Below, piece after piece: positions 2,689 to 52,744 of a stretch of 64,000 bases of DNA. Origin of the DNA: Centroscyllium fabricii (Eukaryota); assembly GCA_051313645.2 (NCBI GenBank), contig JBNRSN020000524.1, positions 186,001-250,000 on the forward strand, written 5' to 3'. Every line of letters begins with the position of its first letter. Positions within the stretch are counted from its first letter, which is position 1. The position numbers and the translations under genes are program-made. The notes beneath the pieces are model-generated. The model ran no database searches. It was given only the letters and a program-made list of their open reading frames with translations, and was not told where the DNA came from.

Positions 2689-2928
2689 ATATCAAATCTT
2701 GTCGTTTCTGAATTTTGTAGTTATATCATATCTTGTAGTTTCTGAATTTTGTATAGTTATATCAAATCTTGTCGTTTCTAAATTTTGTATAGTTATACCA
2801 AATCTTGTAGTTTCTGAATTTTGTATAGTTATATCAAATCTTGTAGTTTCTGAATTTTGTATAGTTATATCAAATCTTGTAGTTTCTGAATTTTGTATAG
2901 TTATATCAAATCTTGTTTCTGAATTTTG
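2689..2928. repeat. 36-bp minisatellite, ~7 copies, in EHBP1 last intron
   Basis: unit tcaaatcttgtagtttctgaattttgtatagttata repeated in tandem. Confidence 0.95.
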
Positions 2929-44938: not shown

Positions 44939-46626
44939 CTGCAGAGGAAGAACATGTTTTTAATAAGCATGAAAATTACATAGTAACTAATTATAAATTA
45001 TGATGTGGAGGTGCTGGTGTTGGACTGGGGTGGACAATTTGTGAGAAGTCTCACAACACCAGGTTATAGTCCAACAGTTTTATTTGAAATAACAAGCTTT
45101 TGGAGCGCAGCTCCTTCATTAGGTGCATGTAAAGAGATTCATTTAAACACAGCATATATATATATAGCGGGAGAGAACAATGTAGTCTCTCCAACTGTTC
45201 AACATCACACCTCAGCAAAGAGACATCAAAGGTGTTCTAACATATCAGTCAGGCATCAGCCTGAGATCAATGAGGTGCAGTCACAAAGGGTCAAATGTTG
45301 CAGTCTGGTGTCTGTGAAAACCCACAATGATTATTTTTTTAAAAAGGGGTTTTCTTACTGGAAATCGCAGCCGTATCCGCGTAGTGAGAACAAGCCAAAG
45401 ACGACTCGAGTCTGAATGAGACTACGTCAGGCGGGGTCACGTAGCGCAACATGAAGCCAATATCACGGTTGAGGCCGTGCTCATGGGTGCGGAACTTGGC
45501 TAACAGCACTGCTCGACGATTTTGCGTTGTCGTGTGTCTCGAAAGCCACTTTGGAGAATGCTTACCCGAAGATCGGAGGCTGAATGTCCTGGACTGCTGA
45601 AGTGTTCCCCGACTGGGAGGGAACACTCCTGCCTGGCGATTGTTGTGTGGTGTCCATTCATCCGTTGTCGCAGTGTCTGCATTGGTCTCGCCGATGTACC
45701 ATGCTCCGGGGCCTGCAACATCTCGGGTAGACAACGTTGGTCGAGTCACATGAGTATGTACCATGTACCTGGGTGTGTGGTGTCCTCGTGTGATGATGGT
45801 ATCTGTGTTGATCTGGCACGTCTTGCAGAGGTTGGCGTGACAGAGTTGTATGGTGTCATGGTCGCTGTTCTCATGAAAGCTGGGTAATTTGCTGCGAATG
45901 ATGGTCTATTTGAGGTTAGGCGGCTGTTTGAAGGCGAGTAGTGGAGGCGTGTGGATGGCCTTAGCAAGGTGTTTGTTGTCATTGATGACATGTTGAAGGC
46001 TGTGAAGAACTTCCCCGGAGCGGAGAAACTACGCCATGTTCTTCGCAGCCTTCAACATGTCATCGATGACGACGAACACCTCGCTAAGGCCATCCCCACG
46101 CCTCCACTACTCGCCTTCAAACAGCCGCCTAACCTCAAACTGTTGAGTCCGTGCTATGTGTCTCATATAACAACGGACTAGACTCCAAGGTATAAAACAA
46201 GGAGGTGTTTATTCTACAATTAGAGTATGGAACTGAGCATATCGCTCCACGTACGAACTTATATACACTTGTGGTAGACCGCGGTACTGCAGTATTACGG
46301 CACTACACAAAGTAGTGCCCAGTAGAATTACTTAAAGGCACATACACAACATTCCTCCCCTCTTAATTTACCTTTACGGTTACAATGCTTCACAATACGA
46401 GGGAAATAACAATTAACGATTTTTACAACAGTAGTATACATACATGTTCTAGTTATGTTTGTCTCTTACAACAATTTTCGATACCATTCTATTCATTATA
46501 ACATTTTTACCAATTTTAATGATTTCTAGTTTTTCTACGATGGTGTTGTTTCTTTGCTTTCGCGGTCGGCTCCTTGACCTGATAGCTTTACTCCTCAGCT
46601 GTCCCAAACAACAACCCCAGCTTCCC

Positions 46627-46688
46627 AGTGGTGCAGGCTCGACGGACCGAATGGTCTACTCCTGCACCTATTTTCTATGTTTCTATGT
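46627..46688 (+). mobile_element. 62-bp SINE/CR1 tail fragment inserted at the end of the coiled-coil ORF
   Basis: caggctcgacggaccgaatggtctactcctgcacc...ctatgtttctatgt; 5-bp TSD ttccc (46622-46626 / 46689-46693). Confidence 0.85.
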
Positions 46689-47203
46689 TTCCCGAGTTCA
46701 GCATTCACACAGTCGAGTTTCATTTCAACCTCAACTTTACCTTCCAACAATAGCACTTTCTCCTGCTCCATTACAGCGAGTTCCTCCTGAAGTCCATCAA
46801 CCTCTTCAATTGACTGTTTAAAAAGGTTCTGCACTACTAGCAGGTTCTTTTCAGTCTCTTGCTGCTTGACTATTGCAACCAAGCACTTTTCTTCCATGTC
46901 AGTGGAGAGCTGCTCCAACTTGCTCTCATAGTCAGTTACTTTGGAGCTCAGCTGTATATGAAGATCCTTAATTTGTTCCTTGGCCTCATCCAAATAATCT
47001 TGCAGTACTTTGTTCTTTTCACGCAACTCCTGTGTCAGAGCATGAAGTTTGTCCATTTCTTTGTCCCGATCCTGGTGCATCTCCTCCAGTGACTCATTTC
47101 TGTCCTGCAATGCAGCCACTGTAGCTTTGGAGGTTTGTAGCTCAGCTTGCAGAAATTTCACTTGACCTTTGAAACGAATCTGGAGACAACTGATCTCCTT
47201 ATC
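46689..47203 (-). pseudogene. Intronless coiled-coil coding segment, HMMR/RHAMM-like, carried inside the LTR element
   Basis: open frame DKEISCLQIRFKGQVKFLQAELQTSKATVAALQDRNESLEEMHQDRDKEMDKLHALTQELREKNKVLQDYLDEAKEQIKDL...; resembles teleost HMMR as I recall it (not searched). Confidence 0.6.
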
Positions 47204-50038
47204 CCAGTCTTATTCAATTCAAGTTTGTGTATTTCTGAAGTAGAGCCACCATCAGGGACTGAACAACTTTCTGAAACAGCAGTCCTATTGGAAATCACAG
47301 GAAGGTTATTTAGAAGACCTTTCTTTTTATTAACGTTCTTCCCAGATTTAGAGTCGACTACTGGGCTCTGAGTACTGTTAGTTAAGTCCTTGCAGCCCCT
47401 TTGTGTGTCTGGGGTGCTTGCCGGTATCCGTGATGGAGGTGCGTAACTCAGTTCAGCACCATAAGGCAACGTGCCATCTTTTGGTTCAGCCACTTCAGCA
47501 CCAATGGTCACGTTACTCAAAGTCTCTCCTTCAGTTGTCTGAAGTGCTCCGTTCAAGCGTGATCGGTTGTGTTGATACTCCCACTCACTTTGTGCAGTCC
47601 GCAACAATTCAATTTGGCCTCGGGCTTCCTGCAGCCTGAGTCAGACGGGAAATATGCATCTGGTGTATATCCAGTCTGTCTGACGTGGCTGCATCATTTT
47701 CCTCAACCTCTATGTGTAAGTCATGGATCGAGTTCCAACCGATATGGAGCTTTTTTATCCATTCACGCCCCAGGAGTGGTGATCCCCCGCTCTTGGAAAC
47801 ATACAGGTACAGTACCTTTACTTTTGTGTCCTTATATTGGACTGTTACGGGCAGTCTCCCCATTTTTCGGAACTTCTGTCCTGTATATGTTTTTAATATA
47901 ACCGGGGATTCTTCTAAAGGCACCCCTCTGAATGCCTTTCTGTAAACCTTTTCATTGATAACGGAGAGGGCTGACCCCGTATCTAATTCCATTAACATCT
48001 CAACCCCCGCAACCTTGAGGGGAACCCACATACTACTGCGGTCTGTGGAATTGACCATATCGTGGACTTTGAGACTTCCAAGACCCCATTCTTCTCTATT
48101 TGAATTTTCTGATTCGTCACCCTAACCATCTTCAGAGAGTTTGTGTACCTTCTTAGACCTGGTCTGTTTCTGTAATATTGTAGTTAGCTTCCCAGATCTG
48201 CAAACCGCCGCTATATGGCCTATCTTGCCGCACTGTCGACAATCCTTATCTTTAGCCCAACACTTACTCTGGTCGTGTGTGGTCTTTCCGCAGCGGTAGC
48301 ACTTTTTAGTGCGGGTTGTAATTTCATGGGTATCGTAGTCGATCCCCTTGTTCCTTATCTCTGTTGCCCCCACAGCAGCTGCCTCGTATGCTGCAGCGAT
48401 TTCTATCGCCTGCTTTAGCGTGAGCGTCTTTTTGGCCAATAGTCTCTTTTGGGTAGATTCATCCAAAATTCCACACACAAGTGTGTCCCTTAAGTAGTTT
48501 GGCAGTTGATCCCCAAATACAGTTTTTAGATAGTCTTCTGAGTTCCGTTAAGTACTCTGACTGTGACTCTCCTTTTTGTTGGTCCCGTTTAAAGAACTTG
48601 AAGCGTTCTGCTATAAATGATGGTTTGGGGTTTAAGTTTGCTTTTAAAATGTCTATAATCTGTTGTAGTGTTTTGTCCACTGGCTTATCTGGGGGCACCA
48701 GAGTTCTCAACAACCCGTAAGTTTCAGACCCCATTGCATTCAGTAGGGTGCTGGCTTTGTTTGCATCAGTGACTGCCTGTACTTGGCAATAAATGTCAAA
48801 GCGTTCTAGGTATGCCTCCCAGTCTTCCTTTTCTAGTTGGAAGGCCCCGAATGTGTCTGATTTTGCCATGGTTAAGTTTCCCAATGGCGTCCAAAATGGC
48901 GTCTTTTCCCGCCTTTTTGCTTCTCTTCTGGCACTTTTCCCGTCTCAAAATGCCGTTTTCCCGCCTTTTTCTGTCCTTTTCCGATTACCTGCGATCGCTG
49001 GAAGGATTGCGCTCTACCTGGATTCTCCCGTTGTCCTGTGGCTGGAGGACCAAACCTGATCCTCGACAGCCTCCGTGCACGACTGCCTCCACCGCGCTGG
49101 CTGTTCAGCGCTCCGCTGTCGACGTCCGACTGCCGCCGCTGATGGTTGCCCCTGCGGCCGACGCCCGATATCTGACTGCCGCTGCAGCACCGGCCCTGCC
49201 CCCGTGGCCGACGTCAGACTGCTGCTGTAGCACTAGCCCTACCCCGAGGTTGACGTCCAATGTCTGACTGCCGTTGCTGGGCTGGGTCCCCGAGTTCTGC
49301 TGCCTCCAGCCGTCGACGTTATTGCCAACGCTCCTCCCCGCAATGTTGAAGAGCTGGTTCTGCGGCCTACCTGCCGTTGCCGGGCTGGGTCCCCGATTTC
49401 TGCTGCCTCCTGCCGTCGACGCTATTGCCAACGCTCCTCCCTGCGATGTTGAAGAGCTGGCTGTGCTGCTAGTGCCAACGCCACTCCCGATGTTGGAGTG
49501 CTGGCTGTCTCTGTTCCCTCTGCGTCACTGGACAATCGCTGCCGCTCCCTCTTTTGGAGTGCAGGGTGTGTCGTTGTAGTCGATGGTCGCCGGTAAGAAA
49601 AAAATTCTCTCTCTTTTTCTTGTAAACCGCTTACACAGCTGTGGATTCGACCGACCTCATCGCATTGTTGTGTCCATGCTATGTGTCTCATATAACAACG
49701 GACTAGACTCCAAGGTATAAAACAAGGAGGTGTTTATTCTACAATTACAGAGTATGGAACTGAGCATATCGCTCCACGTACGAACTTATATACACTTGTG
49801 GTAGACCGCGGTACTGCAGTATTACGGCACTACACAAATTAGTGCCCAGTAGAATTACTTAAAGGCACATACACAACACAAATAGACCATCGTTCGCAGC
49901 AAATTACCCAGCTTTCACGAACAGCGACCACGACACCACACAACCCTGCCACGGCAACCTCTGCAAGACGTGCCAGATCATTAGCACAGATACCATCATC
50001 ACACATGAGGACACCACACACCAGGTACATGGTACATA

Positions 50039-50423
50039 GAAACTAGGAGCAGGAGTAGGCCATTCGGCCCTTCGAGCCTGCTCCGCCAATCAATGAGATC
50101 ATGGCTGATCATCCAAACCCCGCCCCTGCCCTCTCCCCATATCCCTCGATCCCTATCGAGCCTGCATCAACACATATCCCACCCTATCCCCGTAACCCCA
50201 CATATTCAATCCCCCTAACACTAAGGGTCAATTTATCATGGCCAATCAACCTAACCCGCACATCTTTGGACTGTGGGAGGAAACCGGAGCACCCGGAGGA
50301 AACCCACGCAGACACGGGGAGAATGTGTGGAGTTTGCACAGATAGTACCCGAGGCTGGATTTGAACCCGGGTCTCCAGTGCTGTGAGACAACAGTGCTAA
50401 CCGCTGTGCCACCGTGCCGCCCA
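50039..50423 (-). mobile_element. V-SINE (HE1-like) inserted in the Penelope arm
   Basis: reverse complement of the 1869-2259 family; TSD tacata (50033-50038 / 50424-50429). Confidence 0.92.
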
Positions 50424-51042
50424 TACATACTCATGTGACTCGACCAACGTTGTCTACCTCATACGTTGCAGGAAAGGATGCCCCGGAGCATGGTACATCG
50501 GCGAGACCATGCAGACACTACGACAACGGATGAACAGACACCGCGCAACAATCGCCAGGCAGGAGTGTTCCCTCCCAGTCGGGGAACACTTCAGCAGTCA
50601 AGGACATTCAGCCTCCGATCTTCGGGTAAGCATTCTCCAAGGTGGCCTTCGAGACACACGACAACGCAAAATCATCGAGCAGAGGCTGATAGCCAAGTTC
50701 CGTACCCATGAGCACAGCCTCAACCGTGATATTGGCTTCATGTCACGCTACATGTGACCCCGCCTGACGTAGAGTCATTCAGGCTCGAGTCGTCTTTGGC
50801 TTGTTCTCACTACGCGGATACGGCTGCGATTTCCAGTAAGAAAAACCCTTTTTTTTAAATCAGTGGGTTTTCACATAGACACCAGACTGCAACATTTGAC
50901 CCTTTGTGACTGCACCTCATTGATCTCAGGCTGATGCCTGACTGATATGTTAGAATCCCTTTGATTGCTTTGATGTCTCTTTGCTGAGGTGTGATGTTGA
51001 ACAGTTGGAGAGACTACATTGTTCTCTCCCGCTATATATATG

Positions 51043-51078
51043 CACCTGATGAAGGAGCTGTGCTCCGAAAGCTTGTGA
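51043..51078 (+). ncRNA. Minimal type I hammerhead ribozyme in Penelope terminal repeat
   Basis: cac-CTGATGA-a-ggagc/gctcc stem II-GAAA-gctt-gtg; palindromic aagctt stem III typical of dimeric PLE hammerheads. Confidence 0.75.
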
Positions 51079-51387
51079 TTTCAAATAAAACTGTTGGATT
51101 ATAACCTGGTGTTGTGTGACTTCTTACAATTATAAATTAGTTTGAGATTATTATTTCATAGAATCACAGAATGGTTACAGCACAGAAGGAGGCCATTCGG
51201 CCTGTTGAGCCCATGCTAGCTGCTAAAGCAAAATGTTAATGAGGAAATGCTCGAATAATCCACATTGTTCACTTACTTGTACTGAATCTAATACACAGAT
51301 ACTGGTTTAAGAATAGTAGCTTCAGTAGAACTCCAGCCTAAATCACTTAATTTAGTACAAACATTTGAAGCCATACAACCAGCTTTA

Positions 51388-52744
51388 TGCCCCGGTTTCA
51401 CTGGAGGCTACGAATTGCCGAATCGTGCCGATTGTGAAATTTGTCCGATTCGTGGGTAATTCTTGCGATTCGTAGTGGATTCGTAGTGGATTCGTAGCGG
51501 ATTCGTAGAGTTCGCGGAAGTTCGCGAGATTTCTTTGAGGTTTCAAGAAAGTTTTTGTTTGTCAAAAAATTTCGTGGGAGGGTTCACGAATGCCCAATTC
51601 GTGATAGATTCCTAAACAATTCGTGACCCTTTCTTATCGTTCTTAACCCTTTCTTACCGTTCTTAACTGATTTGTAGTGGATTCGTAGTGCATTCTTGCC
51701 TATTCTTGGGCATTCTTGATTTTCTCAAATTCGTGGAAAAACGCCGAATTCATCACGAATGTCCACGAATGTCCACGAATGTCCACGAATGCACTACGAA
51801 TGCAATTCGTAGATAATTCGTAGAATTCGTAACTAAATCGTGGAGGTCGTAGTGGATTCGTTAATTAATTCTTCATATTCGTGAGTGATTCGTACCTCAT
51901 TCCTACAATAATTCGTGATAGATTCTTAACCTTGTCCAGAATCGCCAAGAATTCACCAAGAATCGCCAAGAATCAACCACGAATTTTCGCATTTTTTGCA
52001 GAATCGCCAAGAATTTCGATTCCTGACGATTCTTGATATTCTTGACATTCTTAGCCTCCAGTGAAACTGGGGCATAATGCCCCAGTTTCACTGGAGGCTA
52101 AGAATGTCAAGAATATCAAGAATCGTCAGGAATCGAAATTCTTGGCGATTCTGCAAAAAATGCGAAAATTCGTGGTTGATTCTTGGCGATTCTTGGTGAA
52201 TTCTTGGCGATTCTGGACAAGGTTAAGAATCTATCACGAATTATTGTAGGAATGAGGTACGAATCACTCACGAATATGAAGAATTAATTTACGAATCCAC
52301 TACGACCTCCACGATTAAGTTACGAATTCTACGAATTAGCTACGAATTATCTACGAATTGCATTCGTAGTGCATTCGTGGACATTCGTGATGAATTCGGC
52401 GTTTTTCCACGAATTTGAGAAAATCAAGAATGCCCAAGAATAGGCAAGAATGCACTACGAATCCACTACGAATCAGTTACGAACGGTAAGAAAGGGTCAC
52501 GAACGGTAAGAAAGGGTCACGAATTGTTTAGGAATCTATCACGAATTGGACATTCGTGAACCCTCCCACGAAATTTTTTGCCAAACAAAAACTTTCTTGA
52601 AACCTCAAAGAAATCACGCGAACTTCCGCGAACTCTACGAATCCACTACGAATCCACTACGAATTGCAAGAATTACCCACGAATCGGACAAATTTCACAA
52701 TCGGCACGATTCGGTAATTCGTAGCCTCCAGTGAAACCGGGGCA
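51388..52744. mobile_element. Inverted dimer of a non-autonomous TIR element (PIF/Harbinger-like)
   Basis: units 51388-52074 and 52078-52744, each bounded by TIR tgcccc(g/a)gtttcactggaggcta; flanked by TTA / TAA / TAA trinucleotides; interior built of acgaat/aagaat repeats. Confidence 0.85.

Follow-up and report, generated by a model that had tools for sequence, protein, structure and literature searches.

A decayed Ty3/Gypsy retrotransposon in the shark Centroscyllium fabricii carries host-derived ZNF608 and HMMR sequence behind its protease

How an LTR element came to carry host-like coiled-coil sequence behind Gag and protease, and what keeps that sequence open to translation, are the questions raised by positions 46141-49878 of the DNA considered here. 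The window, i.e. the whole stretch that was analysed, comprises 64,000 nt of Centroscyllium fabricii (assembly GCA_051313645.2, contig JBNRSN020000524.1, positions 186,001 to 250,000 of the forward strand). Lying on the minus strand and inserted into a Penelope-like GIY-YIG remnant, the element belongs to a non-autonomous Ty3/Gypsy LTR retrotransposon family and has decayed (Table 1). Its LTRs are 1.4% divergent and read TG...CA on the minus strand. A first-pass annotation had described paired LTRs, a target-site duplication, a polypurine tract, a Gag with two CCHC knuckles, a protease and the absence of RT, RNase H and integrase, and all of these were confirmed. Pfam matches identified Gag (zf-CCHC, E 4e-4; PNMA, E 3e-5) and the protease (Asp_protease_2, E 5e-6), and none of the five element frames scanned against Pfam matched a family of RT, RNase H or integrase; weak matches to unrelated bacterial helical families were below cut-off and disregarded. 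The 67-bp insertion is missing from three aligned sister copies, and in three of four runs the contigs bypass it; 18 matches to the repeat behind it occur in a 160-kb stretch of the host HMMR locus.

Table 1. Layout of the element in the window, in its direction of reading, with the target-site duplication last
Feature	Position	Strand	Details
5' LTR	49666-49878	-	213 nt; helper type; 96% to LTR of helper L063
Primer-binding site	49655-49665	-	decayed in window copy; TGGCGACGAGG in many sister copies
5' leader	48870-49654	-	GC-rich; 103-bp tandem duplication at 49268-49460
gag	48122-48869	-	ATG 48869; CCHC knuckles 48301 and 48241; frameshift ~48521; stop ~48122
Aspartic protease	47700-48121	-	D-T-G at 47983
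X0	47530-47683	-	short predicted helix directly after protease; frameshift ~47636; in all four subfamilies
Captured ZNF608 piece	47218-47527	-	within a single large host exon; native frame; predicted disorder
Captured spliced HMMR piece	46694-47215	-	host junctions 47198, 47086, 47041, 46967, 46880, 46779
67-bp insertion	46627-46693	-	private to window copy; tail of abundant repeat
C-terminal tail	46516-46626	-	Lys/Arg/His-rich at end; common to all four subfamilies
3' end derived from present helper	46370-46465	-	switch at short shared word ~46465
Polypurine tract	46352-46369	-	
3' LTR	46141-46351	-	211 nt
Target-site duplication, left copy	46136-46140	.	5 bp; right copy 49879-49883, one mismatch

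The coiled coil had been attributed to HMMR (RHAMM), and this attribution holds. The coil matches Pfam HMMR_N (E 9.5e-10, exceeding the curated cut-off), and all 12 matches of a protein search were cartilaginous-fish proteins with an HMMR_N domain, 11 of them named HMMR (120/179 identities to protein P0001). A merely generic coiled-coil match is rejected by the mapping onto host exons on G000:C1122 (444/522 nt, 85%). In correction of the span given initially, 46689-47203, the homology extends from 47215 to 46694 and begins within host exon 6. Six host splice junctions fall inside the piece, the host introns there are all AG/GT, and the capture spans exons 6-13, with sister copies extending into exon 13. 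Intact, intron-bearing HMMR and ZNF608 genes are found elsewhere in the genome, and the proposed origin from a spliced host mRNA is borne out by the mapped junctions and by intron loss relative to the parental gene. A lead to CCDC13 (score 0.81) was under threshold and was discarded.

The captured HMMR piece corresponds to approximately residues 174-380 of 830. It is not a functional HMMR/RHAMM, because it lacks the microtubule-binding sites at the N-terminus and the bZIP at the C-terminus (PMC7226759). For one natural copy a parallel in-register dimer was predicted (score 0.52; best of three controls 0.00), with contacts agreeing to at least 98% between runs and pLDDT of at least 87; among eukaryotic homodimers 17 of 29 attain the score mark and none of 30 monomers does, and likeness to solved coils may account for a pass. 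Searches of solved structures returned generic coils only.

Most of the supposed low-complexity linker derives from ZNF608, a second captured gene, which sits in a shifted frame in the window copy. This piece agrees with host locus L100 at 268/310 nt (86.5%) and with protein P0013 at 72/111 residues; the paralogue L101 was rejected in favour of ZNF608, and no match supported a derivation of the linker from HMMR or an integrase tail. As it lies within a single host exon, it is uninformative on intron loss. Frame arithmetic placed the CCHC part, the protease and the coil in one frame, as suggested earlier, and the postulated one-frame Gag-PR-cargo polyprotein is encoded in natural copies; small deletions at ~47213 and ~47204 shift the HMMR frame in the window copy.

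Every scored match of the HMMR piece in the genome (40 of ~2,100 candidates scored) was a dispersed, intronless copy, and the different target duplications of these copies indicate repeated retroposition as a unit; the dispersed sister copies also reject a later retrocopy inserted into one copy only. The 5-bp target duplication is exact in 18 of 42 two-LTR stretches, the others having a mismatch or mis-called ends. Sampling of loci picked by their cargo revealed four subfamilies (A-D) on three divergent Gag-PR/LTR backbones. HMMR is kept in C, B and A, where the ERC portion is progressively reduced, and neither ZNF608 nor HMMR is present in subfamily D, which has coils of the ERC/CAST and ANKRD26 families; this pattern points to stepwise capture at short shared words. 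Subfamilies C and D have their own LTR pair with a 5-bp duplication in all four copies that retain both LTRs (six fetched).

The putative ERC/CAST- and ANKRD26-family pieces in the cargo of C and D are assigned from Pfam matches above cut-off (Cast, E 6e-24; CCDC144C/ANKRD26 family, E 7e-23), and host ERC genes were located on C435 and C700. Several searches with segment X of subfamily B gave no match, and the Cast match was recognised because C and D contain longer forms of this segment; searches with X0 and the middle coil of subfamily D matched no source. The cargo of D is predicted to be almost wholly helical. The ERC/ZNF608 and ZNF608/HMMR junctions fall on words of 10 and 7 nt, respectively, each in the same frame in both partners, and shared words occur at all three junctions for which both parents are in hand (10, 7 and 6 nt; raw count).

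The search for an autonomous element with the same LTR and gag, which the first-pass annotation had recommended, was successful. Helper L063 encodes a 1136-aa frame in the order PR-RT-RH-IN, has Gag continuing into Pol in one frame, and possesses two CCHC knuckles, the PBS TGGCGACGAGG and a 5-bp duplication. Its Pol is best matched by Ty3 (E 2e-80; best retroviral Pol, foamy, E 1e-21), and its integrase ends ~110 nt before the 3' LTR, leaving no room for env. A retrovirus or endogenous retrovirus is therefore rejected, and the comparison with oncoretroviruses is not borne out as kinship. TG...CA LTRs, PBS, PPT, short target duplications and the Ty3-type RT of the helper place the system in Ty3/Gypsy, and the window family, without RT, RNase H and integrase of its own, is non-autonomous. 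Judging from PBS, single frame and twin CCHC, the helper is probably Mag-like. Mag-like elements share with the helper the single Gag-Pol frame, two CCHC knuckles, the PR-RT-RH-IN order, the PBS and the 5-bp duplication; the window family differs by lacking RT, RNase H and integrase and by carrying host cargo.

The two kinds of element are closely connected. Among 14 loci chosen by gag alone, eight carry cargo, four are of helper type and two are unclear. The gag of subfamily A is 95% identical to that of the helper, i.e. as close as to other A copies, and the window-type 3' end changes over to the helper's sequence. The C-terminal part of the window protease is closer to subfamily C than to the present helper. 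Gag-PR of subfamilies C and D is 62% and 47-54% identical to the helper at the amino acid level, respectively, and their LTRs are merely 55-63% alike.

The open cargo frame is under selection, while its residues are without constraint. None of 217 fixed changes is a stop (~10 expected), whereas 55 stops occur among 1236 private changes (p 2e-4). The reading frame is preserved by 8/8 inherited cargo indels and by 3/39 private ones, the eight being partly dependent in that three belong to one A-specific replacement. The N/S ratio of fixed element-borne changes equals that of private ones (2.57 versus 2.63, p 0.85). A first, mild signal of purifying selection on HMMR residues (1.64 versus 2.85, p 0.04) was lost between subfamilies (C versus A, 2.16 versus 1.86); for X0, D versus A gave 0.90 versus 2.72 (p 0.051). 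Frameshifts common to three or four copies occur in gag, protease and tail, and recombination with the helper may account for the purifying selection on gag and protease.

Our preferred explanation, to which we assign an even chance, is that RT, RNase H and integrase were replaced by in-frame ZNF608 and spliced HMMR sequence, that a co-packaged helper likely mobilises the element, and that the coil likely acts as a generic pairing rod for Gag-protease. Template switching by RT, between element RNA and host mRNAs packaged alongside it, would have added pieces stepwise: ANKRD26-type and ERC-type coils probably came first (the D state), ZNF608 and HMMR followed (C), and two final transfers onto the backbone of the present helper would have produced A and B. 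The RNA would be translated as Gag-PR-X0-cargo, and the product would join mixed particles supplied with helper RT and integrase, where the helices may substitute for the bulk of RT-IN as a dimerisation or spacing module. If so, any long host coil would suffice. In HIV-1, RT promotes protease activation via Gag-Pol pairing (PMC11998509), and PMC3291649 describes a foreign zipper placed after the protease that acts likewise, whatever its sequence, but also gave premature cleavage and fewer particles. Two observations count against a generic rod: ZNF608 is not a coil, yet it is retained, and in subfamily A the HMMR coil and the protease lie on either side of a predicted disordered spacer of ~100 residues, so that only X0 abuts the protease.

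The main rival, possible but in our view doubtful, assumes that the frame is kept for the sake of the RNA: a stop after the protease would create a long untranslated tail, leading to decay or poor cis packaging, and the protein tail would be inert. Coils would accumulate because purine-rich words are common to coil-coding mRNAs and make in-frame template switches more likely. Strict purging of stops and frameshifts at neutral N/S, the tolerance of in-frame cargo deletions of 219 and 351 nt, the equally good retention of a disordered piece, the location of junctions on shared words and a translation stop merely ~165 nt upstream of the 3' LTR in the window copy are all in line with this model. 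However, deletion of the cargo alone would fix the RNA problem, and yet a long helix is present in every cargo-sampled subfamily. Inherited changes in the coils also include no new prolines (0/132 versus 19/306, p 0.001; post hoc test), and the basic tail and X0 persist over three backbones.

A specific role of HMMR is unlikely. Here host HMMR or one of its partners would pair with the captured piece, so that particles dock at germ-cell centrosomes or spindles, or the piece would act as a dominant negative. The captured segment comes from the HMMR stalk and is predicted to form dimers, and HMMR was kept in C, B and A while ERC shrank. The CHICA-binding region of human HMMR comprises residues 365-546. 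Nevertheless, the microtubule-binding sites and bZIP (PMC7226759) are missing, and subfamily D spreads without HMMR. Moreover, 29 of 38 amino acid differences from host HMMR arose on the element side at neutral N/S, and this drift argues against an HMMR-specific spindle function. The microtubule or dominant-negative role suggested initially is accordingly not borne out. In favour of such a role, PMC7921559 lists HMMR mRNA as one of eight human mRNAs concentrated at centrosomes, where particles may therefore assemble. Pure hitch-hiking of a neutral stuffer, with a frame left open by a short chain of young master copies, is very unlikely, for although N/S is neutral and young retrocopies are often in frame through youth alone (PMC5131818), the cargo diverges 11-15% from the host, the tree of copies is ladder-like, none of the ~10 expected stops was fixed and the frame survived two backbone changes.

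The capture mechanism, LTR-mediated retroposition, is already known (Tan et al. 2016, PMC5131818). The sections of that study considered here describe animal elements in which host mRNA pieces replace internal ORFs, with short shared words at switches, multi-gene chimeras and further non-autonomous rounds, and they cite the plant element Bs1, which carries three genes. The shark family likewise exhibits HMMR intron loss, shared words at fusions and further rounds of retroposition. In contrast, the cases in these sections are young or decaying (14 of 21 older ones disabled), whereas the shark frame has persisted to 11-15% divergence, and the family is very large, with three backbones and repeated gain of coils. 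Crocodilian ERVs with KIT-ligand or nectin3 similarly amplified captured host mRNA in a vertebrate germ-line LTR element and kept the ORF; according to PMC4299795, which also mentions v-kit, they are retroviruses whose host ORFs are nearly complete, evolve under purifying selection and lie beside or replace env. The shark element is Ty3/Gypsy, and its fragments are fused to Gag-PR, replace RT-IN and drift neutrally.

Defective transducing retroviruses encode gag-onc fusions, carry host sequence in place of replication genes and require a helper. The shark element is alike in these respects, but its helper has neither env nor a retroviral Pol, several unrelated genes are joined in series and nothing indicates that a signalling function was retained. 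A literature search, with most subscription journals and supplements outside its scope, retrieved no report of this element family.

The family constitutes a natural time series of retroelement protein building, in which four host gene families were joined in frame and intermediates, junction words and two parental genes are all available within one genome. In it, selection on reading frame can be told apart from selection on residues, and the benefit that a helper-dependent LTR element draws from translating its tail becomes testable; it also demonstrates that cargo moves between retrotransposon lineages just 47-62% alike in Gag-protease. For large shark genomes, a practical consequence is that intronless HMMR-, ERC- and ZNF608-like pieces can mimic gene-family expansions. 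More tentatively, and somewhat short of an even chance, cartilaginous fish may harbour a parasitic class of Ty3/Gypsy elements in which Pol has become a swappable coil rod (ANKRD26-type, ERC-type, HMMR, with a ZNF608 spacer), selected for shape and not for sequence. Such a rod, assembled by serial capture of host mRNAs, would aid entry into or maturation in helper particles and pass from one helper lineage to another as a cassette; the genes from which it came would record the site of particle assembly in germ cells, possibly the centrosome.

The element was borne out as real, its content being richer than the first-pass annotation had described. In the window element (window at G000:C1072:186001-250000, in a genome of 7.2 Gb whose closest protein matches suggest a shark or ray), Pfam detected HMMR_N besides Gag, CCHC and protease, but neither RT nor RNase H nor integrase. 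Its LTRs are 1.4% apart, and its insertion target is a Penelope-like GIY-YIG remnant. The earlier proposal that its coil is an HMMR fragment captured from a spliced mRNA holds: over 179 aligned residues the coil is 67% identical to shark HMMR, and it matches the exons of the intact host HMMR gene on contig C1122 (exons 6-13 bounded by AG/GT) at 444/522 nt, crossing six splice junctions. In sister copies, this homology extends into exon 13. The stretch described as a linker matches a host ZNF608 exon (locus L100) at 268/310 nt; one search with the linker hit ZNF608 in 2 of 748 candidates, and a ZNF608 paralogue considered as source gave no match to the window. Both pieces meet at a 7-nt word, and the reading frame there is identical in both genes. 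The window copy is dead, carrying the lesions listed below and a private 67-bp insertion.

Features of the window and of two further loci
Feature	Position	Strand	Remarks
LTR retroelement	46141-49878	minus	LTR pair, PPT, decayed PBS, 5-bp duplication with one mismatch
Frameshifts in the element	near 48521; near 47636; 47204-47213		
Stop in the element	near 48122		
Penelope-like GIY-YIG remnants	45039-45912; 49879-51129		mutually facing long inverted pair flanking the insertion
Hairpin	45909-46139		102-nt arms, at edge of insertion
GC-rich segment	34265-37667	plus (frames)	63% GC; four overlapping open frames, 283-297 codons
Tandem array	2689-2928		36-bp unit, 6.8 copies
Degenerate array	51438-51979		11-bp unit, parts inverted
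Weak HMMR_C match outside host gene (L033)	G000:C933:382780990-382781145		E 8e-4; candidates: paralogue, KIF15-like zipper or fragment
Integrase, 72% nt to present helper	L154:2487-3626		directly upstream of a ZNF608-less HMMR piece; candidates: older helper, or recombinant retaining part of Pol

First-look searches returned 2109 candidates for the HMMR piece, 2391 for the linker, 3227 for gag and 4133 for helper RT, totals that are not copy numbers, with 40 of the 40 candidates scored per search matching. Among 14 loci chosen by gag alone, eight carried cargo (two of them one duplicated locus), four had helper-type interiors and two were unclear. In the helper L063, a Ty3-type PR-RT-RH-IN frame spans 1136 aa, and the LTR resembles that of the window element at 96%. 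Well-called LTR pairs show 1-8% differences, and exact, mutually different 5-bp duplications accompany 18 of 42 pairs. Two LTR types occur among subfamily A copies; in those of the window type, a 6-nt word marks the switch to the 3' end of the helper, which points to co-packaging. One natural copy keeps a 680-aa single frame from Gag into HMMR, and of 47 checked stretches, 2 have an uninterrupted frame from CCHC into the cargo. The full set of 30 bins is covered by contigs from three studies, and one contig crosses the ZNF608/HMMR junction. Some family copies contain other nested retroelements (L050/L051, L052, L056, L066), including a second, antisense Gypsy-type pol in L050 and a LINE-type RT in L052. 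Separate positions on C1333 and C856 (L018, L025, L026, L028) and on C667 (L023/L024, L068/L069) hold near-identical copies, either segmental duplications or redundant assembly.

The relatives differ in cargo. Subfamily B (1259 candidates) joins the helper's protease and first RT residues to a longer coil. Subfamily C, retrieved by host-sequence search, is nearest to the host (ZNF608 87-94%, HMMR mostly about 89%); in its coil, Pfam recognises Cast, the model of the ERC/ELKS family (best E 1e-12), and the subfamily passes from ERC to ZNF608 in frame at a shared 10-nt word. Subfamily D, retrieved with the Cast model, carries X0 (a short helix predicted after the protease), a coil of the ANKRD26 family (CCDC144C, E 7e-23), pieces of ERC (E 6e-24) and the basic tail seen in the other subfamilies, and lacks ZNF608 and HMMR at 18/18 loci. 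Both C and D form complete LTR elements (LTR pairs 93-97% alike). Their LTRs are unrelated, and their backbones are 62% (C) and 47-54% (D) identical to the helper in Gag-PR. From nested content and closeness to host, we infer the order D-like, then C, then A and B. A tree built on HMMR from A and B copies has the shape of a ladder whose tip is A; judged by LTR divergence, the insertions of C and D are no older. Host ERC-family exons lie on G000 contigs C435, C700, C1488 and C2, belonging to at least two genes whose introns are very long. Two or more further helical pieces, in L181, in X0 and in D's middle coil, have no Pfam match and probably come from additional captured genes.

Selection was analysed in 68 clusters from 120 loci, after removal of the host locus and of seven loci that were unclear or resembled the helper, with private changes (N/S 2.6-3.0) as neutral yardstick. 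Shared changes gave N/S of 1.02 in gag and 0.68 in protease (p ~2e-6 each), and of 1.64 (p 0.04), 2.9 and 2.3 in HMMR, ZNF608 and the coil segment X of subfamily B. Between subfamilies, a comparison free of the host branch, cargo changes numbered 106.5 N against 41.5 S (N/S 2.57, versus 2.63 for private changes); cargo residues are neutral there. Loci of C and D entered this comparison without de-duplication, and the private N/S of C is lowered because C was chosen for likeness to host. The frame behaves differently from the residues: 217 fixed changes include no stops, versus 9.7 expected (about 6.6, by hand, for the 148 of the element-only subset), and up to the HMMR end 8/8 inherited indels (three being one event) are in frame versus 3/39 private ones, in a survey leaving out one long locus and including two garbled alignments. 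Private indels shift the frame in 19/26 cases in D and 11/19 in C. Against a selected frame, frameshifts common to 3-4 copies are present in gag, protease and tail.

The reading we favour, at about even odds, is that the captured coil may stand in for RT-IN as a generic rod. Structure models predict that A begins with a helix, followed by a spacer without order, a second, long helix and the basic tail, and that D is nearly all helix (single-sequence models, mean pLDDT 60); self-pairing of the HMMR piece is predicted (score 0.52 versus 0.00 in controls). In HIV-1, protease activation is described as driven by downstream pairing through RT (PMC11998509); a foreign zipper downstream of protease drives activation too, but is harmful (PMC3291649). 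A less probable, tentative alternative to the rod is that the needs of the RNA keep the frame open while capture is biased, which accommodates the neutral residues beside the intact frame. An HMMR-specific role is improbable: the piece spans only stalk (about aa 174-380 of 830), the microtubule-binding sites and basic C-terminal motifs of human HMMR being placed at 40-59 and 76-90, and at 636-667, respectively (PMC7226759). Neutral cargo, which would suit the residues but not the missing stops, is the least probable of all.

ANKRD26 is a centrosomal or microtubule protein. Human HMMR mRNA is described as collecting at centrosomes (PMC7921559), and the centrosome is a lead on the capture site, no more. 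Three junctions fit template switching at short shared words, an established route of host-mRNA capture as described in PMC5131818. The family is of a known kind, to which the LTR-mediated retrocopies treated there, Bs1 (PMC5131818) and crocodilian ERVs with KIT-ligand or nectin3 (PMC4299795) belong; our literature search found neither the family nor replacement of Pol by a coil reported.
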